A DNA stretch of 64,000 nucleotides from Bacillota bacterium (lineage in GTDB: Bacteria; Bacillota; UBA4882; JBLNCG01), in the NCBI GenBank assembly GCA_050260475.1, contig JBLNCG010000028.1, forward strand, positions 64,283 to 128,282, in the 5' to 3' direction. Numbering within the stretch: position 1 is the first letter of the stretch; every line of letters starts with the position of its first letter. The notes beneath the pieces are model-generated. The model was given only the letters and a program-made list of their open reading frames with translations. It was not told the origin of the DNA and did not search any database. Positions 3,899 to 45,389 of this stretch are shown piece after piece. The translations under genes and the position numbers were made by a program.

Positions 3899-4019
3899 TA
3901 AACAGAACCGTGAATCCCGTTTGGGAATAAAAGCTGTATGTTGATTCACGTCAGCTTATTTTTATTACTTCGTTCGCTGACGTGAACGACTACTTGAAAA
4001 TTGCATAAAAGAACCGGGG

Positions 4020-4255
4020 CGCTTATTCTTGGAAGCTTAATAGGGAAACAGGTGCGATTCCTGTGCGGTCCCGCCACTGTAAGGGGGAGCCTCCTGGTAA
4101 ATGCCACTTTCCGTCACTATTGGCGCAGTATTCCAAGTGCCGGGGGGGAAGGCGCCAGGTGGACGAAGAACCCGAGTCAGGAGACCTGCCCCGGTTTCGC
4201 TGCGGCAAATGGGCCGCTGCACATCTCACAACCTACGGACGATAGGAGGGTGAAA
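4020..4255 (+). promoter_or_regulatory. cobalamin (AdoCbl) riboswitch aptamer
   Basis: Conserved core AATAGGGAA...GGTGCGATTCC...GCGGTCCCGCCACTGTAAGGGGGAG with the B12 box GCCACTG. Located in the leader of a TonB-dependent BtuB-like receptor gene. Confidence 0.85.
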
Positions 4256-4276: not shown

Positions 4277-4312
4277 TGATCCGGATCCGGGTTAAAGGCA
4301 TTTTTTATTAAA
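4277..4312 (+). terminator. riboswitch expression-platform intrinsic terminator
   Basis: GCCTTTGATCCGGATCCGGGTTAAAGGC stem (contains the palindrome CCGGATCCGG) followed by CATTTTTTATT. Confidence 0.6.
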
Positions 4313-4428
4313 GGCAATTGCGTTTTACCTTGATTCAAGGTCTTGCCATTAAATATAGTGTATGGCTACCATTAGGCTATCGATATTTCGCGGCAAGGCG
4401 TAAAATTATCACAACAACGCAAATTGCT
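4313..4428 (+). repeat. intergenic repeat family A, copy 1 (TIR-bounded, ~116 bp)
   Basis: AAGGCAATTGCGTT..TACC...GTCTTGCC...ATTAGGCTATCGATATTT...GGCAAGG...CAACAACGCAAATTGCT. Ends are inverted repeats of each other (GCAATTGCGTTGTTA / TAACAACGCAATTGC). An inner 7-bp inverted repeat GTCTTGC/GCAAGAC is also present. Four more copies occur in the window. Confidence 0.8.
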
Positions 4429-4482
4429 TATTCACACTACAAAATCATTCTTTTTAAAAATGACTGAATGGAGGCAAGGTAT

Positions 4483-6288
4483 ATGAATTTTAAAAAAGTC
4501 ATCATCGGCATATTGATTTTGGTATTATTTTCAATGGGAATAATCATGGCGTGGGCGGAGGAAGGGCACGATGATGCCGGAGAGGCTGATGAAGAAATAG
4601 TGGTAACCGCCACCCGAACCGCCGAATCTTCCGAGGAGTCTCCGGGAATGACTGAAACAGTTTCCGGCGAGGAGGTTGAAAGTAAAAAGGATGTGCCGGA
4701 AGCCCTGCGGGATGAAGGAGTCACTGTGTCCTTTTACGGAGGGGACAGTTCTGCCGCTGCACTGCAGCTAGACGGATGCTCTGCGGAGCAGACCGTGATC
4801 TTGCTCAATGGAGTTCCGTTGAGCGGCGGATGCAGCGGGATCTATGATTTGAGTTTTTTCCCTTCCGATGGCGTGGAGAGAATTGAAATCGCACACGGCC
4901 CTTTGTCTTCGTTGCACGGAGCCAACGCTTTAGGCGGCGCCCTTAATATCTTTACGGACTTGACCGGCGAGGCCTGCGTTAAAATAATGAAACGCTATGG
5001 CGATTTTTCCTCGGTGCAGACCGGTTTTCTTTTGCAAGACAACGAATTTGGAATCGCGATGGGACAGTCATCGACCCAAGGTTACCGCAATGATCCGGCT
5101 ACGGATACATATTTGTGCGGACAAATCGATCTTTGGACGAAAGATGAAAACAGTTGCAGCTTTTATCTTTATTTGCTGGGGAAAAATGCCGGGATACCGG
5201 GTTCCACATTTTATCCGTCAAATGGCCGGGAGCATGACAGCAGTTTTCTGGGAAGCATCCTGGGCAGAAAAAAAACCGGCGGGATAAAGTGGGAATACAG
5301 CCTTTATCGGCAGCAGTCGCAGTTGAATTACCAGGACAGCGCCTCTGTCGGCAACCATTTCGCTCTGCGGGAGGGTGCGGACCTGGCATGCTTCTACGAA
5401 GGGAAAAAACACACTTTCCTTACGGGTCTGCATTGCAACAGGGATTATTACGAAAGCAACGTCTCCGGTATTCATTCCATGGACAATACGGGCATCTTCT
5501 CCCAGGACATCTGGAAGATAAACAGCAGAACCACGGCCATTTGCGGTGTCCGGTGGGATCATAACGATGTATATGGATCCGCCTGGTCGCCCAGGATCAA
5601 TTTGATACATGGGCTGTCATCCGATTGGACGGTTAAAATCGGCTACGGCAAAGCTTTCCGGGCTCCGACCATCAACGAATTATACTGGAGTCAACCGGAA
5701 TTGGGAATGAACGGCAATCCGGAACTTAAGCCGGAAAACGGAGAAAGATGGGATGCGGTCCTTCAGTATGGCTCCGGTAAGGATTCAATAGCGATCGATG
5801 TATTCAGAACGGATCTTGCGGACGGCATCAACTGGGAGGCTACGCCGCCTGACTGGTTCTTTACGCCGGAAAACATTCAAAAAATACGCATCAACGGAGT
5901 AACTCTGCAGTGCAAACGGCAGTTTAACGATTGGTTGGGTTTTACTTTAAACAGTCAATGGCTGGATAAAAAAGCCTGGGATGCGGTTGACGCCGATTAC
6001 ACCCGTGATATGAACTATTATGGACGGCGCCGGTTTGCACTGGGATTCGATACCGCCTGGAAATCCTGGACGGTGGATGCAAACTGGCAGTTCACGGGGG
6101 ATCGATACCAGTGGGGCTCTGCAGTGCCGGATTATCACATTTACAACTTATATGCCACATATAAGGCAAGTCCAAATGTGGTTTTTCAGTTGGCAGTGCA
6201 GAACGCTCTCGATGAAATTTATGAGATGCATCAGGGTTATCCCATGCCGGGGAGGGAAATCCGACTGGGATGGATCATCAAAGCATGA
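4483..6288 (+). CDS. btuB: TonB-dependent outer-membrane receptor, BtuB-like (vitamin B12 transporter)
   Basis: Signal peptide, TonB box EIVVTATR, plug then beta-barrel length (~600 aa), aromatic-rich C-terminus. Downstream of the cobalamin riboswitch. RBS GGAGG 8 nt before ATG 4483. Confidence 0.8.
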   Translation: MNFKKVIIGILILVLFSMGIIMAWAEEGHDDAGEADEEIVVTATRTAESSEESPGMTETVSGEEVESKKDVPEALRDEGVTVSFYGGDSSAAALQLDGCSAEQTVILLNGVPLSGGCSGIYDLSFFPSDGVERIEIAHGPLSSLHGANALGGALNIFTDLTGEACVKIMKRYGDFSSVQTGFLLQDNEFGIAMGQSSTQGYRNDPATDTYLCGQIDLWTKDENSCSFYLYLLGKNAGIPGSTFYPSNGREHDSSFLGSILGRKKTGGIKWEYSLYRQQSQLNYQDSASVGNHFALREGADLACFYEGKKHTFLTGLHCNRDYYESNVSGIHSMDNTGIFSQDIWKINSRTTAICGVRWDHNDVYGSAWSPRINLIHGLSSDWTVKIGYGKAFRAPTINELYWSQPELGMNGNPELKPENGERWDAVLQYGSGKDSIAIDVFRTDLADGINWEATPPDWFFTPENIQKIRINGVTLQCKRQFNDWLGFTLNSQWLDKKAWDAVDADYTRDMNYYGRRRFALGFDTAWKSWTVDANWQFTGDRYQWGSAVPDYHIYNLYATYKASPNVVFQLAVQNALDEIYEMHQGYPMPGREIRLGWIIKA

Positions 6289-7876: not shown

Positions 7877-7905
7877 ATATCCTGTCAAGGGAAAATGCTT
7901 GACAA

Positions 7906-8019
7906 GGCAATTGCGTTGTTACCTTAATTCAAGTCTTGCACTTAAATATAATGTATAATTACTATTAGGCTATCGATATTTTAGCAAGACGTAAAATCAT
8001 CATAACAACGTATATTGCT
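7906..8019 (+). repeat. intergenic repeat family A, copy 2
   Basis: Same architecture as copy 1: AAGGCAATTGCGTTGTTACC...GTCTTGC...ATTAGGCTATCGATATTT...GCAAGAC...CATAACAACGTATATTGCTC. Confidence 0.8.
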
Positions 8020-12139: not shown

Positions 12140-12715
12140 ATGTCGGAGTGGAAAAAAGCCCGTGTGGAACTTTATCCTAAATCATGTTTCCGGGAAAACC
12201 TGGAATCCATCGCAATTGCCATCACGTTTACTGTTTTTGTCATGATCTTTGTTTTACAAGCGTGCATGGTTGATGGGCATTCCATGGAGCCTACATTGCA
12301 CGATCGGGAAAGGTTATTTGTGGACAAGATAACCTATCAGATTCTTCCTTTGAAAACCGGCGATATCGTGGTTTTTCACCCTCCGCTGGAAACAAAAAAC
12401 CGCTTCATCAAAAGGGTGATAGGTACTCCCGGAAATTATGTGGAGATTAAAAACGGAGATGTATACATCAACGGGAAACCGCTTCATGAACCTTATCTGA
12501 AGGATCAGGATTTTTTACCCGGTAATTATGCATCGCAAGTAATTCCTGCGGATAAATATCTCGTGCTGGGGGATAACCGCAATAACAGCAACGACGGACG
12601 CTGGTTCGGCCTGATCGGGAAAAAAGCCATCGTGGGCAGGGCGGTATTTGTTTTTTGGCCCTTTTCAAGGATGGGATTTATTAAATATCCTCATTATTAT
12701 AGAACCGGTGATTAA
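12140..12715 (+). CDS. lepB: signal peptidase I (second copy)
   Basis: Catalytic SMEPT, KRVIG and GDNRNNS boxes with an N-terminal TM. Confidence 0.8.
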   Translation: MSEWKKARVELYPKSCFRENLESIAIAITFTVFVMIFVLQACMVDGHSMEPTLHDRERLFVDKITYQILPLKTGDIVVFHPPLETKNRFIKRVIGTPGNYVEIKNGDVYINGKPLHEPYLKDQDFLPGNYASQVIPADKYLVLGDNRNNSNDGRWFGLIGKKAIVGRAVFVFWPFSRMGFIKYPHYYRTGD

Positions 12716-12725
12716 ATGCATCTAA

Positions 12726-12823
12726 CCGTTTTGGAAAATCGCGATATCTCTAGGCCGTACCAATTAAGGTACGCTCGGCGTGCCTAAGTTAAGGCACGTT
12801 CCTTTAACGCGTTTTGCGATTGC
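12726..12823 (-). repeat. intergenic repeat family C, copy 1 (~98 bp, TIR-bounded)
   Basis: Ends ATCGCGATTTTCCAAAACGG / AACGCGTTTTGCGATTG are inverted repeats of each other. Two internal perfect hairpins: GTACC-aattaa-GGTAC and GTGCCT-aagtta-AGGCAC. The reverse complement aligns with copy 2 at 44713-44784. Confidence 0.7.
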
Positions 12824-13029
12824 TCAACTTTTACACTTTGATTTTAATGCAGCAAAATCAATATTTTAGGGATATTAAATTTGAAAAAATCGTTAAAAGA
12901 TCGTCTTTTCTTGTCCCGCAAGATCATTTGGATATTTTTCATTGCTGATTTTGATTTTTTTGTTTTGCATTGCAAGAACAGAAAGATATGACTTTGCGCC
13001 GGGCTAAATTGATATGCGAAATTTGAGTG
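12823..13029 (+). repeat. intergenic repeat family B, copy 1 (~207 bp)
   Basis: Starts CTCAACTTTT, ends CGAAATTTGAGTG (imperfect TIR). Contains the perfect 24-bp palindrome TTGATTTTAATGCAGCAAAATCAA (12838-12861) and a second palindrome TCTTGTCCCGCAAGA. Aligns with 16192-16349. Confidence 0.7.
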
Positions 13030-13073
13030 ATTGATAAGCTTAATTACAGGTTTAATAATATGTGCGGGAGGGG

Positions 13074-13925
13074 ATGTCGGTTAAGAGAATTCAATGGTTT
13101 CCCGGACATATGGCCAAGGCGTTCAGGGATTTTAAAAAAGTCTTCAGCCTAGTACACCTGATTGTGGAGGTAGCGGACGCACGTATTCCCATTACCAGCC
13201 GCAATCCGGAATTAGGGCATCTGGCTTCACACAAACCCCGCATTCTTCTTCTAAATAAAATGGATCTGGCGGATCCGCGCATCACTGTCCAATGGCATGA
13301 ATTTTGGGAAAAAGAGGGGATAAATGTTTTTCCTGTAAATGCCAGATTGCAGCAGGGTTTCCTGGAAGTTACGAGAAAGATCAAAACTCTGCAGGTTTCC
13401 AATCCTTCCCCCTTCAGACTGATGATTATCGGATTGCCCAATACCGGGAAATCGTCGGTTTTGAATAGTTTATGTAAAAACGGACGCTGTAAGACCGGGA
13501 ATAAGCCGGGGACAACCAGGGGAAAACAGTGGATCACCACGCCGTACGGGTGGGAACTTCTGGATACGCCGGGACTGATGCAACCTGGAGAGATGACGGC
13601 ACAAGCGGGCGTAAAACTGGCTGCAGCCGGCGTTATTCCTGATGATCTGCTGGGATTGGAAGAATTGGCCCTGGATCTGATTCGTGTTCTTAAGGAGAAG
13701 TATGCTTTAGGGGATCAAAAGGCGGTATGCCTCAATCAAGAGGCGGACGAATATGCAATTCTAAAGGGATTCGGCCTGAAGCAAGGATGTCTTGCAAAGC
13801 GGGGTGAAGTGGATTTGCACCGCACCGCGGGAATTTTTATGCGGGATTTTCGCAACGGAAGGCTGGGGCGGTTTACTCTCGAGTGGCCGCAGGACTTTTA
13901 TCCTTCAACAAGCGTAGAAAAATAA
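13074..13925 (+). CDS. rbgA: ribosome biogenesis GTPase A (RbgA/YlqF)
   Basis: IQWFPGHMAKA N-terminus. Circularly permuted GTPase motifs (LLNKMDL, GLPNTGKSS, DTPG). Confidence 0.85.
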   Translation: MSVKRIQWFPGHMAKAFRDFKKVFSLVHLIVEVADARIPITSRNPELGHLASHKPRILLLNKMDLADPRITVQWHEFWEKEGINVFPVNARLQQGFLEVTRKIKTLQVSNPSPFRLMIIGLPNTGKSSVLNSLCKNGRCKTGNKPGTTRGKQWITTPYGWELLDTPGLMQPGEMTAQAGVKLAAAGVIPDDLLGLEELALDLIRVLKEKYALGDQKAVCLNQEADEYAILKGFGLKQGCLAKRGEVDLHRTAGIFMRDFRNGRLGRFTLEWPQDFYPSTSVEK

Positions 13926-14970
13926 CTCCGCCGACGATATTGTTGGTATGAAAACTAATCAGGCGCCAGAGGGTGATGATTACTCCCAGCATATTTTTAG
14001 GAACATAAAGCTGACGGAAAATGGAGAGGAATCCTAATTCCACCACCCCGCTTCCCCCAGGAATAGGCAGGTAGGCAGCGACAAAAATGAATAGGTATTG
14101 AAGCAGGATGGAACTGGCGAAGTTCACTTTAAATCCCAGAAAATACAAGATAACAGGGGCAATGGAAAAAAATGAGAGCCAAAAAAGGCTGGAAAGGATC
14201 AAAATCAATGCAATTAGCCCCTTATTTTTATGAAAAAGCGCCGTGAGGCAAAGGTGGAATTCATCCAGCGCTTTGAAAAAGGCCTCCAAGTTGGTTTCCA
14301 GGAATATGTTTTTTCCCCGATCGGACGCGTCGCATTCTGCGGAAGAGCATTTTTGTTTTTCTTTACTGCATTTAAACAGCGCGAGAAATGTTAAGAGCAG
14401 GTTTTTTGCCGCATGCGGTCTGCTGAGAAAGAAGATTAAAAGTCCGCTGATCACCGCGCCTAGGATTATTAAAATAATCTGGATGAATAAAGCGAGATGC
14501 AGTACTTTCGGAAAAATAAACAGCAGCACGGGGGCTCCCAGCGTGAAAACAAGGGTGCCTGTGGCGATGCGCGCCGTAACGACGGCACTGGCTTTTCCCA
14601 GGGACATCCCCTCCTTGTGCAGAAGGTAAACCTGGGTAGGGGCACCTCCCGAAGTATATGGAGTCATATTTCCTGTAAAAAAAGTAGCCAGGTTGATTAA
14701 AATGATTTTATATAATGGAAGGTTTTCCTCAAGTAAAGTGGAAATGACTTTTATGCGCATACCTTCAACCAGCCACGACAGGGCAAGCATTAAAAGACCG
14801 GCGGCGGCAGCCCAGCATAACTTGAAGGTGTTCAATGCGCGCAGAACTTTTAAGGTGTCTCCGCCTGAACTGTAAAGGTTGACGGCTAGCAGGCATAAGA
14901 AGCTCAAACCCACGGTAACGGTAATACCGCGTTGAATGGTTCTGCGGCTAATGCTGTTTCGGCTGATCAT
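13873..14970 (-). CDS. UPF0104 / flippase-like (LPG_synthase_TM family) integral membrane protein
   Basis: About 8 predicted TM helices. The conserved C-terminal IPGGSGVVELGF motif is typical of the family. 3' end overlaps the rbgA 3' end by 53 bp (convergent). Confidence 0.65.
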   Translation of the reverse strand: MISRNSISRRTIQRGITVTVGLSFLCLLAVNLYSSGGDTLKVLRALNTFKLCWAAAAGLLMLALSWLVEGMRIKVISTLLEENLPLYKIILINLATFFTGNMTPYTSGGAPTQVYLLHKEGMSLGKASAVVTARIATGTLVFTLGAPVLLFIFPKVLHLALFIQIILIILGAVISGLLIFFLSRPHAAKNLLLTFLALFKCSKEKQKCSSAECDASDRGKNIFLETNLEAFFKALDEFHLCLTALFHKNKGLIALILILSSLFWLSFFSIAPVILYFLGFKVNFASSILLQYLFIFVAAYLPIPGGSGVVELGFLSIFRQLYVPKNMLGVIITLWRLISFHTNNIVGGVIFLRLLKDKSPAATRE

Positions 14971-16162: not shown

Positions 16163-16187
16163 AACCCCGCGGAAGCGGGGTTTTTTC
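16163..16187 (+). terminator. rho-independent terminator
   Basis: CCCCGC-ggaa-GCGGGG followed by TTTTTT. Confidence 0.75.
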
Positions 16188-16191
16188 CGAA

Positions 16192-16349
16192 CTCAACTTT
16201 CGCACCTTGATTTTAATGCGGCAAAATCAATATTAAATTGAAAAAATCGTTAAAACATTCGTCTGTTCTTGTTACGCAAGATCATAATGTTTTGAATTTA
16301 TATTAATTGATATGATTTTGCTGCGCTCTAATCGTATACGAAAGTTGAG
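16192..16349 (+). repeat. intergenic repeat family B, copy 2 (~158 bp)
   Basis: CTCAACTTTCG...CGAAAGTTGAG 11-bp perfect TIRs. Contains the palindrome TTGATTTTAATGCGGCAAAATCAA (16207-16230) and TCTTGTTACGCAAGA. Confidence 0.75.
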
Positions 16350-16361
16350 TCGCGAATATAA

Positions 16362-17522
16362 TCATATGGATTTAAATACCGCGATGCAATTGTTGCCTAC
16401 CACTACCAGATAGCCGAGGCCGATGGAAGCATGTCTGGAATATTCATTATATTTTTCCAACAGGACTGATTCATATAACTGTTTGTCCGCTGAATATATT
16501 TCTCCGGAAATCAAGCGGCGTCCCGCCAAAGGGTCAAAAGAGCGGTAATAAACCATTCCGTTGGCGCTGAATATATAACTGGTGTTGCCGCCGGCGACGG
16601 CATTCCAGTGTATTTTTCCAGTCAAGGCATCCAGTGCGAAAATTTTGCCTGTGGTGCAGTGAGCTATCAGGTAATTCTGATATAGGGTGTAATGATTGAT
16701 ATTTCCCTCTAACCGCATCTGCCAAATGGTTTTTCCGGTAGTTTCACTGAGGGCGTGAATTAGATAATCCGAAGTCCCGACAAATACCATCCCCTGGGAA
16801 AGGACAGGATGGTTTGCGCCCCGGACCTTTGTTTTCCATATGATATCCCCGTTTTTAGGGGATAATGCGATCACTTCCGTAAATGAGCCGCTTATGTCGT
16901 TAGAGCTTACTGAAGTGAAACAGATGATATCGTTGTTTACCGCGAATGCGTTGGAGTTAACGCCCTGATATACTTTTTTCCAAATTGTGTCGCCATTGCT
17001 TGCATTAAGCGCAAAGAAATCAATACCGGAGGATCTTTTTCCCATCAGATATAGTTTATCATGGCAAAGCAGTGGAGGATAATGGTAATCGCTTAAAAAA
17101 GTCTTAGCCCAGAGTTCCTTTCCATTAAAGGCGTCATAGCAAAAAAGCGTGCCCTTTTTAGTTAATACTATAAGTTTTCCCTGATAAAATACAGGTTCAA
17201 GAAAACTTTCGAAATATGAAGTTTCCCAAGATACTTTGCCGGTCGCGATATTATAAGCGATCAGTTCCTGATTTTGCGTCAGTATGAAAAATTTGCCTCC
17301 GCCGATGATCGGTTCGGAACAAAAAACAGGGTTGTCGACGCGGGGCGGAATGCTCCAAACGAAAGTATAAGGAACCTTCGCGGATTTTTCGCCGGTATTC
17401 GCCCTGGTGCCGGAACCGTCGCAGCCGAACATCGGCCAGTTATCGGCGGATTCTGTCGCTGCCATGCCCGATCCTGTCAGCAATAGTAAAAGGAACAATA
17501 GTGGCGAGATTTTTTTATACAT
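16362..17522 (-). CDS. secreted PQQ-repeat beta-propeller protein (BamB-like)
   Basis: Signal peptide MYKKISPLLFLLLLLTGSGMAA. Repeated YAL/YAxD-G-W beta-propeller blades. Perfect RBS AAGGGAGG 7 nt before ATG 17522. Confidence 0.7.
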   Translation of the reverse strand: MYKKISPLLFLLLLLTGSGMAATESADNWPMFGCDGSGTRANTGEKSAKVPYTFVWSIPPRVDNPVFCSEPIIGGGKFFILTQNQELIAYNIATGKVSWETSYFESFLEPVFYQGKLIVLTKKGTLFCYDAFNGKELWAKTFLSDYHYPPLLCHDKLYLMGKRSSGIDFFALNASNGDTIWKKVYQGVNSNAFAVNNDIICFTSVSSNDISGSFTEVIALSPKNGDIIWKTKVRGANHPVLSQGMVFVGTSDYLIHALSETTGKTIWQMRLEGNINHYTLYQNYLIAHCTTGKIFALDALTGKIHWNAVAGGNTSYIFSANGMVYYRSFDPLAGRRLISGEIYSADKQLYESVLLEKYNEYSRHASIGLGYLVVVGNNCIAVFKSI

Positions 17523-23428: not shown

Positions 23429-23446
23429 ATGGTCGTTCACGCCAGC

Positions 23447-23499
23447 TATCGATATTTGGTGGCAAGACGTAAAATTATCATAACAACGCAAATTGCTCT
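23447..23499 (+). repeat. intergenic repeat family A, copy 4 (3' half only, truncated)
   Basis: GCTATCGATATTTGGTGGCAAGACGTAAAATTATCATAACAACGCAAATTGCTC matches the 3' ~55 bp of family A. The 5' arm is absent. Confidence 0.7.
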
Positions 23500-23522
23500 A
23501 AGAGGGGAAAGAGACCTTTCAG

Positions 23523-27917: not shown

Positions 27918-28049
27918 CCGGCATCCACGGTTGATTTTGGGTTGCAAAATTAAATGATTCATTGATTCCCCTTGGGTTACATTTATGATTAAAATCGCAC
28001 CATTGACATGAGGATGTTTCTTTGATAAACTTGAATCATGAAATCCTTT

Positions 28050-28145: not shown

Positions 28146-28718
<573 letters not shown>

Positions 28719-28996: not shown

Positions 28997-29947
28997 ATGG
29001 ATATCATGTGGCAGCGCAAAGATATACTTGGGCTGGAGGAGTTGTCGGCGCAAGAAATAGAAATGGTTATGAATCAGGCTTCCATATTTAAAAAAATATT
29101 CGCCAAACCGGAAAGAAAGCTGACGCTGCTAAAGGGCAAAACTGTGGTAATTCTTTTTTTTGAACCGAGTACCCGCACTAGGACCTCTTTTGAAACAGCC
29201 GGCAAATGGCTGGGCGCGGATGTAATAAATATTTCGGTGGCCGCAAGCAGCGTCCAAAAAGGGGAATCCCTGCGGGATACTGCAAAGACACTGCAAGCAA
29301 TGGGTGCAGACATCATCATCATCAGGCATACCGCGGCCGGATCTCCTCATATACTGGCATCCGCATTGCAGGCAAAGGTAATCAACGCCGGCGATGGAGC
29401 TCATGAGCATCCCACTCAGGGGTTGCTTGATCTCTATACGATCAGAGAAAAAAAGAACAGCATCAAAGATCTCAACGTGACCATCATCGGTGATATCCTG
29501 CATTCCAGGGTGGCGCGCTCCAATATCTGGGGATTGCGAAAAATGGGGGCAAATATCACGGTAGCAGGTCCGCCGACATTAATTCCCGCCGGAGTTGAAA
29601 AAATGGGCGTCCGGATATTACATGACCTTAAAGAAAGCCTTAAGGACGCGGATGTTGTCAATATCCTCCGCATACAGCTTGAGCGTCAGGAGAAAGGCAT
29701 GTTTCCATCTTTACGAGAGTATTCGCATCTTTTCGGTCTCAACCATACAAAGCTGAAGGAGTGGGCAAAACCGGACATCCTGGTGCTGCATCCCGGCCCT
29801 GCCAATTTGGGGGTGGAGATCTCCGAAGAGGTTTCCTCCGGTGAATCTTCCGTTATTATCGAACAGGTCAAAAATGGTGTGGCGGTCCGGATGGCTTTGC
29901 TGAGTCTGCTGGCAGGAGGAGAGATGAAAAATGACGCTATTGATTAA
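28997..29947 (+). CDS. pyrB: aspartate carbamoyltransferase catalytic subunit
   Basis: STRTR carbamoyl-phosphate motif and HPLP/HPGP motifs. Confidence 0.9.
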   Translation: MDIMWQRKDILGLEELSAQEIEMVMNQASIFKKIFAKPERKLTLLKGKTVVILFFEPSTRTRTSFETAGKWLGADVINISVAASSVQKGESLRDTAKTLQAMGADIIIIRHTAAGSPHILASALQAKVINAGDGAHEHPTQGLLDLYTIREKKNSIKDLNVTIIGDILHSRVARSNIWGLRKMGANITVAGPPTLIPAGVEKMGVRILHDLKESLKDADVVNILRIQLERQEKGMFPSLREYSHLFGLNHTKLKEWAKPDILVLHPGPANLGVEISEEVSSGESSVIIEQVKNGVAVRMALLSLLAGGEMKNDAID

Positions 29948-45237: not shown

Positions 45238-45358
45238 AGAGCAATTTGCATTGTCATTATAATATTACGTCTTGCCGTAAATATCGATAGTCTAATGGCA
45301 GGCCGTACACTATATTTAATGGCACGACCCAGCATTAAAGTAACAACGCAATTGCCTT
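45238..45358 (-). repeat. intergenic repeat family A, copy 5 (inverted orientation)
   Basis: The reverse complement aligns full-length with copy 1 (AAGGCAATTGCGTTGTTAC...CCATTAAATATAGTGTA...CATTAGACTATCGATATTT...GGCAAGACG...CAAATTGCTCTGC). Confidence 0.8.
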
Positions 45359-45389
45359 AAGCAAAAAACATACCGCACTATCTTGGCAG

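Follow-up and report, generated by a model that had tools for sequence, protein, structure and literature searches.

Family B repeats in a Bacillota housekeeping gene cluster as probable decayed MITEs with IS10/ISPepr1-type ends

Family B, a pair of repeats in a 64,000-nucleotide stretch of Bacillota DNA (the window), is very probably a low-copy, decayed MITE with IS4-family ends of the IS10/ISPepr1 type. MITEs are non-coding deletion derivatives of insertion sequences. Comparison of the family B ends with those of known elements suggests that the perfect 24-bp palindrome carried by both copies serves the functions of a transposon end and not those of an operator. The two copies (B1 and B2) and their features are listed here by window coordinates.

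12816–12822, no strand: left flank of B1, GCGATTG, a weak candidate for a decayed target duplication
12823–13027, plus strand: B1, family B copy 1, putative MITE of 205 bp (GC 0.31) in the lepB-ylqF spacer
12823–12836, plus strand: B1 left terminal repeat, CTCAACTTTTACAC, with 2 mismatches to the CTCAACTTTCGCAC type
12838–12861, plus strand: B1 subterminal palindrome, TTGATTTT-AATGCAGC-AAAATCAA, at +16 to +39 from the tip
12856–12868, plus strand: perfect IHF-type consensus WATCAANNNNTTR (AATCAATATTTTA) in B1, at +34 to +46, overlapping the right arm of the palindrome
12909–12923, plus strand: B1 central hairpin, TCTTG-TCCCG-CAAGA (TCTTGTCCCGCAAGA)
13014–13027, minus strand: B1 right terminal repeat, CTCAAATTTCGCAT (minus-strand reading)
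16165–16186, plus strand: intrinsic-terminator-like hairpin, CCCCGC-GGAA-GCGGGG then TTTTTT, downstream of rnhB, read from the sequence
16185–16191, no strand: left flank of B2, TTCCGAA, putative left-hand repeat of a 7-bp target duplication, now decayed, overlapping the last Ts of the rnhB terminator
16192–16349, plus strand: B2, family B copy 2, putative MITE of 158 bp, bounded by the rnhB terminator on one side and by the 3' end of a convergent BamB-like gene on the other
16192–16205, plus strand: B2 left terminal repeat, CTCAACTTTCGCAC
16207–16230, plus strand: B2 subterminal palindrome, TTGATTTT-AATGCGGC-AAAATCAA
16267–16281, plus strand: B2 central hairpin, TCTTG-TTACG-CAAGA (TCTTGTTACGCAAGA), at the centre of the fold-back
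16336–16349, minus strand: B2 right terminal repeat, CTCAACTTTCGTAT (minus-strand reading)

The preliminary description of this DNA had placed the copies at 12823–13029 and 16192–16349; the second pair of boundaries stands, and the right end of B1 is moved to 13027, making that copy 2 nt shorter. In a blastn comparison, B1 12823–12927 and B2 16192–16285 are 79% identical (E = 4e-22). Aligned globally, the two full elements have 134 matching and 21 mismatching positions and 53 gap columns, an identity of 86% when aligned bases alone are counted and 64% when every column is. The homology in this alignment runs from tip to tip, the right ends included, which bears out the earlier claim that the two copies are similar. 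It breaks off precisely at the TIR tips, beyond which the flanking sequences show no relation to each other. B1 is 47 bp longer than B2, comprising a 12-nt block (TTAGGGATATTA) absent from B2 and T-rich material in its right half, in agreement with the T-rich extra sequence described before. Likewise, the statement that family B is unrelated to families A and C agrees with blastn, which found no sequence similarity between them. MITE-like families A, B and C together crowd the intergenic spacers of the housekeeping cluster, in a lineage without sequenced close relatives.

Both copies are intergenic, non-coding and shorter than 500 bp. They are AT-rich, with a GC content of 0.31 (B1) and 0.30 (B2) vs 0.48 for the window, 17 points below the host. 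No ORF is common to B1 and B2, which hold only short ORFs of 20–46 aa; a coding sequence was rejected, the ORF that is open in B1 having a stop in B2. The copies lie in direct orientation 3.2 kb apart, flanking ylqF, an LPG-synthase-like gene and rnhB, within a housekeeping array conserved in Bacillota (ffh, rpsP, a KH protein gene, rimM, trmD, rplS, lepB, ylqF, rnhB). B1 follows the lepB stop at 12715 and precedes the ylqF ATG at 13074. B2 sits between convergent genes, directly behind the terminator-like hairpin and 12 nt from the stop codon of the BamB-like gene. The hairpin at 16165–16186 received no call from the terminator scanner, possibly because A-T pairs lengthen its stem into the T run. 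A reading of the two copies as attL and attR of an island was discarded, the cargo between them being housekeeping genes.

No third copy or B-type end was found in 71.6 kb (the window plus 7.6 kb from Logan contigs of run SRR24035587). Each of the seven Logan contig ends observed lies in a family A, B or C repeat or in a tRNA-Arg gene; two lie inside B2, 14 nt apart within its palindrome, and one lies inside B1, an indirect hint at near-identical B copies elsewhere in the sample. The central-hairpin block had 0 matches in metagenomes, and blastn of B2 and of one Oceanobacillus MITE against PLSDB returned only noise.

The ends of B2 form a perfect TIR, CTCAACTTTCG / CGAAAGTTGAG (11/11), as the preliminary description had it, and those of B1 are 8/11 complementary (CTCAACTTTTA / CGAAATTTGAG). 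The TIRs of B2 extend imperfectly over ~40 nt, and B2 is self-complementary at 67% over 167 nt. The left flank of B2 is paired with TCGCGAA at 16350–16356, a 5/7 identity that was reached by 0/69 displaced flank pairs in the control described below. The left flank of B1 is paired with TGATTGA at 13028–13034, with GATTG in common at a 1-nt slip. The target sites of B1 and B2 are not especially AT-rich.

Published definitions describe MITEs as non-coding elements of <500 bp with TIRs of ~4–30 bp and direct repeats that wane with age, AT-rich and intergenic, with a stable stem-loop and multiple dispersed copies (PMC10969869). Family B shares the length and non-coding character, the TIRs and the AT-rich intergenic site, and B2 alone has the stem-loop. 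The same features (short, AT-rich, non-coding, TIR-bounded and intergenic, with fold-back structure and putative direct repeats that would have decayed with age) liken it to the Correia, RUP, ERIC, Chunjie, Nezha and QMITE families (PMC10969869, PMC3184786). It differs from these classical MITEs in end sequence, with no sequence similarity to them, in TSD length, and in having only two copies documented in its host so far. Correia and RUP duplicate TA. Chunjie has 9-bp DRs (PMC3184786) and was rejected on that ground as the family to which B belongs.

B2 is a full-length fold-back (-50.9 kcal/mol; z = -8.4 as RNA and -4.8 as DNA), centred on a short hairpin whose counterpart is present in B1, so that the second palindrome reported earlier for both copies is confirmed at 12909–12923 and 16267–16281. 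Could the repeats then be exapted RNA elements, either paralogous sRNAs or stabilising or terminating 3'-UTR hairpins, an explanation compatible with a MITE origin? The 158-nt hairpin of B2 begins 12 nt past the stop of the BamB-like gene, which is without another obvious terminator, and MITE transcripts are known to act in this way in other bacteria (PMC10969869). Against this, B1 shows no significant folding (z = -1.6 as RNA, -0.1 as DNA) and has lost the fold-back property, the B2 hairpin has no T-tract behind it on the minus strand, and the two sequences, the only ones to compare, show no compensatory changes. Neither region matched Rfam 15 even at E = 1 (best scores 15–21 bits vs gathering scores of 45–57), and an sRNA or riboswitch was discarded on this result. 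We consider an exapted RNA element improbable; a role of B2 as RNA or terminator is possible as a passive side effect.

The ends of family B recur in other genomes. We scanned 185,579 species-representative genomes with the pattern CTCAACTTTCG-N120-150-CGAAAGTTGAG, that is, the B2 ends at MITE spacing, and recovered 69 elements at 67 loci vs ~1 expected by chance. The elements are multi-copy within genomes, with 25/67 loci from one Desulfobacula MAG and 10/67 from Desulfocicer vacuolatum. Other carriers are Desulfosarcina, Desulfobacter, Prevotellaceae, Oceanobacillus, Paenibacillus, Shouchella, Haloimpatiens, Campylobacterota, Nitrospirota and Chitinophagales, a spread over Desulfobacterales and at least five other groups. 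Among the complete genomes rich in MITEs of this type are those of Desulfosarcina alkanivorans PL12 (NZ_AP021874.1) and Desulfocicer vacuolatum DSM 3385. A perfect 7-bp TSD flanks 32/69 elements and a 6/7 match flanks 6 more, whereas 0/69 displaced flank pairs exceeded 4/7; the consensus TSD of the 69 elements is TTAWWAA. These 69 elements are bona fide MITEs. The first 14–16 nt of B2 equal MITE ends in Oceanobacillus, Paenibacillus, Nitrospirota, Campylobacterota and other genomes, which places family B in a cross-phylum MITE superfamily. Members resemble B in their tips, identical over 11–16 nt, and in size (142–172 bp). They differ in having fresh, perfect TSDs where those of B are decayed, and in their internal sequences, which are unrelated to B, as expected of MITEs that have only the ends recognised by the transposase in common. 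Two reviews and a literature search by end sequence, the latter returning primers only, contain no account of the superfamily, and it is apparently new to the literature.

Internal likenesses between B and individual superfamily members are slight. With the tips removed, B1 and a MITE of the CALFER01 family align with a score of 33, above 1000/1000 shuffles; the full-length alignment of B with CALFER01 scores 38, with the next best, between unrelated families, at 29 among 276 comparisons, and is not a clear outlier. We take the internal similarity of B1 to CALFER01 as a hint only. A MITE family from a Deltaproteobacteria MAG (L055) carries the palindrome arms of B around another spacer, GTTGATTTTT-N7-AAAAATCAAC. 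Dyads of the form TTGAT...ATCAA occur in 2/55 clusters vs 0.17 expected (p ~0.01), an enrichment that we discount because the motif was defined post hoc.

The assignment to the IS4 family draws on the published characters of its ISPepr1 subgroup, which has ends of the form YT-AA-YTT---A beginning 5'-CT, DRs of 7–8 bp and a preference for AT-rich targets (PMC2266710, Table 1). Both CTCAACTTTCGCA and CTCAACTTTTACA fit this consensus at 8/8 specified positions, with a chance of ~1 in 16,000 per comparison, a fit that holds for the left end of B1. Besides the 5'-CT ends and the consensus match, the 7-bp AT-rich TSDs of the superfamily are shared with the subgroup, a likeness that is only suggestive for B itself; B differs in being a 158–205 bp derivative and not a 1.5-kb IS. 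ISTeha8, an IS of the ISPepr1 subgroup with experimentally observed activity, produced the 7-bp duplication TTATTCA.

Within the subgroup, the named member ISAsp3, from the Anabaena sp. 90 plasmid pANA02, has the end TTCAATACTGTAGCC. Distant relatives of its transposase, found by tblastn in Deinococcus, Persicobacter, Bacteroides/Parabacteroides, Leptolyngbya and viral contigs, have CAAT..TxCG ends; the ends of ISAsp3 and these relatives are similar to CTCAACTTTCG but not the same. Their TSDs are 6–7 bp long and AT-rich (ATTCTTA, TATTAAA, ACTAAAT, GTTAAA, ATAAGT, TTTCAAT), which is consistent with placing the B superfamily in the ISPepr1 clade. No transposase of the right kind was present in the window, in L011 or at the 67 MITE loci, and no autonomous IS with exact CTCAACTTTCG ends was found among the PLSDB or IMG/VR relatives of the ISAsp3 transposase. 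ISPepr1 itself was absent from 200 kb of the Pelobacter plasmid pPRO1, in which ISPepr2, ISPepr5 and ISPepr6 are present. Two sets of candidates were rejected in the same search: the recurrent ORFs at the 67 MITE loci are ordinary genes, and the solo ends considered as ends of a parent IS are truncated MITEs. The IS4/ISPepr1 assignment of family B, which follows from the published consensus, the TSD length and the end architecture, is well supported but indirect, because no autonomous element with the exact ends was found.

The end architecture was compared with the outside end of IS10, checked on plasmid R100 immediately upstream of the IS10-type transposase gene. This end reads CTGATGAATCCCC-TAATGATTTT-GGTA-AAAATCATTA-AGTTAAGG, and its subterminal palindrome is perfect. 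In missing-nucleoside interference the transposase-binding site of IS10 spans +7 to +23 and its IHF site shows from +28 to +34; the IHF site reaches +42, the consensus equivalent lying at +30 to +42; IHF bends the IS10 arm and thereby brings about subterminal transposase contacts (PMC3159471). Like family B, the IS10 end begins 5'-CT, and TGATTTT occupies +17 to +23 in it, the very positions that it takes in both B1 and B2. The IS10 end likewise carries a perfect subterminal palindrome whose right arm, AAAATCA, lies within the IHF-type site, and has that site at one end of the element only. It differs in its terminal 13 nt, which are unrelated (CTGATGAATCCCC in IS10 vs CTCAACTTTCGCA in B), in its spacer (4 nt vs 8 nt in B), in the start of its IHF-type site (+30 vs +34 in B) and in its 9-bp duplications, as against 7 bp in the superfamily of B; B, in addition, is non-coding.

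At the left end of B1 the IHF consensus is matched with 0 mismatches from +34, and neither the B1 nor the B2 right end has a site; in B2 the consensus is broken by a 12-nt deletion that removed its 3' half. The left end of B1 thus appears to have the bipartite architecture of IS10, with a transposase-contact region followed by an IHF consensus 30–45 bp in. The position of the box is conserved in the superfamily: with ≤1 mismatch allowed, five independent end clusters have the consensus beginning exactly at +34 and one more has it from +33, whereas the largest pile-up at any single position in 1000 shuffles was 3 (mean 1.0). L055 belongs to these families. Each element has an IHF-type box at one end only, as in IS10. 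Bacillota are not known to encode IHF, and no HU/IHF gene signature was seen in 72 kb of this genome; the IHF-type site in B1 may therefore be inherited baggage, or it may be used by HU.

The preliminary description had reported a perfect 24-bp palindrome in both copies, which we find at 12838–12861 and 16207–16230, and had called for a search for further instances of it alone. The exact form TTGATTTT-N8-AAAATCAA does not occur in the window beyond those two sites. With ≤2 mismatches there are 3 matches in the window vs 0.09 expected (3 were reached in 0/100 shuffles), the third being a 2-mismatch match at 27931–27954 whose flanks show no similarity to B. The exact 24-mer had 0 matches in the species-representative genomes and in JGI metagenomes, and the end-plus-palindrome pattern had 0 matches in IMG/VR. 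The 9 matches of a relaxed palindrome scan of IMG/VR, with dissimilar flanks, were put down to chance. The arms carry no substitutions between B1 and B2, which is only marginally unusual at the observed divergence (~7%, an estimate from the global alignment). In the CALFER01 MITE family the dyad is broken (TTGAATTT) in 3/4 copies, and a perfect dyad is therefore not required.

Two functions had been proposed for the palindrome, the operator of a dimeric transcription factor and a recombinase-binding site at an IS end. As an operator it would make the two loci duplicated regulatory regions, and the perfect 8-bp dyad with an 8-nt spacer, the retention of the arms in both copies, the position of B1 upstream of ylqF and a weak promoter-like array overlapping the palindrome (TTGATT-18-TATTTT, read from the sequence and below the scanner threshold) would all fit. 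B2, however, lies between convergent genes, after a terminator and just past a stop codon, with no gene to regulate; no promoter prediction is common to B1 and B2; and no other intergenic region of the window contains the palindrome, the 2-mismatch site at 27931 being without flanking similarity. The broken dyad of CALFER01 also speaks against an operator, and the arms are accounted for by the IS10-like end architecture, the right arm being explained by an IHF-type consensus whose position is conserved and which unrelated MITE families also have. We therefore judge an operator to be highly improbable. The IS-end half of the earlier proposal gains from the MITE ends, the 7-bp TSDs and the mapping onto the IS10 end, and the operator half loses from its genomic context and the lack of a promoter. 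From the positional homology with the IS10 end we infer that the palindrome is best read as an inner transposase box joined to a host-factor site; the simplest reading is that these two functions were inherited together from a parent of the IS10/ISPepr1 type.

A local segmental or leader duplication, or recombination repeats around the ylqF-rnhB block, with no mobility, would suit two direct copies 3.2 kb apart flanking ylqF, the LPG-synthase-like gene and rnhB, and is scarcely credible because the homology stops at the TIR tips between unrelated flanks and the same tips bound dozens of TSD-flanked elements in unrelated genomes, the GC content standing 17 points below the host as well.

For family B as a decayed MITE, the likeliest parent is an IS4-family member from the IS10/ISPepr1 lineage. 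The ends of B would be bound over their terminal 15–23 bp (CTCAACTTTCGCAC...) by a transposase acting in trans, the left arm of the palindrome (TGATTTT, +17 to +23) forming the inner part of the contact region. The right arm, AAAATCAA, would be the core of the IHF-type bending site WATCAANNNNTTR at +34 to +46; in IS10 a site of this kind loops the arm of the transposon back to meet the transposase, and the right arm of B may be read likewise. Excision would take the cut-and-paste route via hairpins, as in Tn10 and Tn5, and insertion would use a 7-bp staggered cut. B1 and B2 look immobile or nearly so today because the TIRs of B1 are mutated and the IHF-type site of B2 is without its 3' half. 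Their side effects are probably passive: B1 lengthens the distance from lepB to the predicted ylqF promoter by 205 bp, and the 3' UTR of the BamB-like gene gains a 158-nt hairpin from B2.

The host lineage is remote from sequenced relatives. Among 5.8 billion proteins, the closest homologue of its YlqF outside the source genome is 44% identical, and there are therefore no orthologous empty sites. The window also contains a cobalamin riboswitch ahead of a TonB-dependent receptor, and a BamB-like protein, which suggests that the host belongs to a diderm lineage of Bacillota.

For annotation, the decayed-MITE reading means that a perfect 24-bp dyad beside essential ribosome-biogenesis genes is to be taken as probable mobile-element debris and not as the site of a regulon. 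More broadly, MITEs of at least six phylum-level groups have in common their 11-nt tips, 7-bp duplications and an IHF-type box locked in position, and a distant branch contains an exact positional match to the subterminal palindrome of the IS10 outside end. The natural variation in spacer length (1, 4, 7 or 8 nt) offers material for studying DNA bending in IS4-family transpososomes. These by-products, the 69-member superfamily and the positional match with IS10, merit the note of transposon specialists and are unsurprising in kind. A more far-reaching proposal, which we advance tentatively and regard as possible rather than likely, is that B and the 69 elements form an undescribed cross-phylum MITE superfamily with IS10-like bipartite ends in which the bending site for a host factor is always at +34. 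If this is true, transpososomes folded by a host factor would go back to the ancestor of the IS10/ISPepr1 branch, and they would also work in hosts such as Bacillota, via the subterminal hairpin itself, HU or another factor. Elsewhere in this deep-branching diderm Bacillota genome, family B may still be moved by an ISPepr1-like transposase.

Family B, the decayed MITE pair B1 (12823-13027) and B2 (16192-16349), shares the window with two further repeat families. Family A repeats are ~120 bp long, are bounded by TIRs AGGCAATTGCGTTGTTA...TAACAACGCAAATTGCT and occur as five copies in the window, full or partial. The flanking sequences, e.g. CTGTTAA/CTGTTTAA, suggest a target duplication of ~7-8 bp, and family A is probably another MITE family. 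One of its copies lies in the 3' region of rnhB, just ahead of B2. Family C repeats are ~65-85 bp long, end in GGAAAATCGCG...CGCGTTTTSCGA and contain hairpins.

Family A and family C copies and the gene between ylqF and rnhB
4311-4428, family A copy
7904-8019, family A copy
~12735-12819, family C copy
13873-14970, minus strand, LPG_synthase_TM (flippase-like) gene, 365 aa
15940-16062, family A copy, inverted
23442-23500, family A copy
44717-~44790, family C copy, inverted
45238-45368, family A copy

The right end of the family C copy at ~12735-12819 is separated from the start of B1 by 3 nt, and two repeat families are therefore stacked in the lepB-ylqF spacer. The ylqF and rnhB genes are usually neighbours in Bacillota; here the LPG_synthase_TM gene lies between them on the opposite strand. 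This gene and the copies of families A, B and C suggest that the stretch has been an insertion hotspot.

Short assembled contigs (Logan, SRR24035587) mapping to the window end at 4362, 7910, 12778, 12963, 16206, 16219 and 17693, and all seven ends fall within repeats A, B or C, or tRNA-Arg. Inside the B2 palindrome, two of these contigs share an overlap of only 14 nt. These contig ends and the short overlap suggest that more near-identical repeat copies, or variants, are present in the sample.

A scan of species-representative genomes for B2-type ends yielded 67 loci (L013-L079) with 69 MITEs, which measure 142-172 bp and have CTCAACTTTCG tips and TTAWWAA duplications of 7 bp. Desulfobacula sp. 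LigF6_bin14 contributes 25 of the 67 loci and Desulfocicer vacuolatum DSM 3385 another 10. An IHF-type box lies exactly at +34, counted from the element tip, in several families of these MITEs. We found no description of the superfamily in reviews or by a sequence-string literature search. In the CALFER01 MAG (L017, 552-772; also L034, L035 and L061), a 57-bp mini-element, CATTCAACTTTCGCC...GGTGCGAAAGTTGAA, lies 6 nt beyond a CTCAAC-type MITE of 156 bp; the left arm of the mini-element, ACACATTGATTTTAAAGGCGAAATCATAATTTTTAAGGAT, is similar to B1 positions 11-56. Two further loci (L023, L028) contain mini-palindromes of abutted ends, e.g. CTCAACTTTCGG-AGTT-CCGAAAGTTGAG.

Dyads resembling the 24-bp subterminal palindrome of B1 and B2 were also seen outside family B.

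Dyads outside family B
27931-27954, version with two mismatches, TTGATTTTGGGTTGCAAAATTAAA, in the spacer upstream of ORFs 28164-28718 and 28997-29947
Plasmid R100 (L109), 1501-1545, IS10 outside end

The two ORFs we take to be pyrR and pyrB. No similarity to family B was found in the flanks of the 27931-27954 dyad, which is probably a chance match. Within the IS10 outside end, a perfect 10-bp palindrome, TAATGATTTT-GGTA-AAAATCATTA, occupies +14 to +37 and straddles the border where the transposase-contact region meets the IHF site; we know of no published function for the dyad itself.

The host is an unclassified Bacillota MAG whose YlqF shares only 44% identity with the closest database protein.

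Features of the window pointing to an outer membrane
4000-4207, cobalamin riboswitch (106 bits), upstream of the TonB-dependent receptor
4468-6288, TonB-dependent receptor
16365-17522, minus strand, BamB-like PQQ_2 beta-propeller protein

The riboswitch and TonB-dependent receptor, with the BamB-like protein, point to an outer membrane, and the MAG is thus probably diderm.
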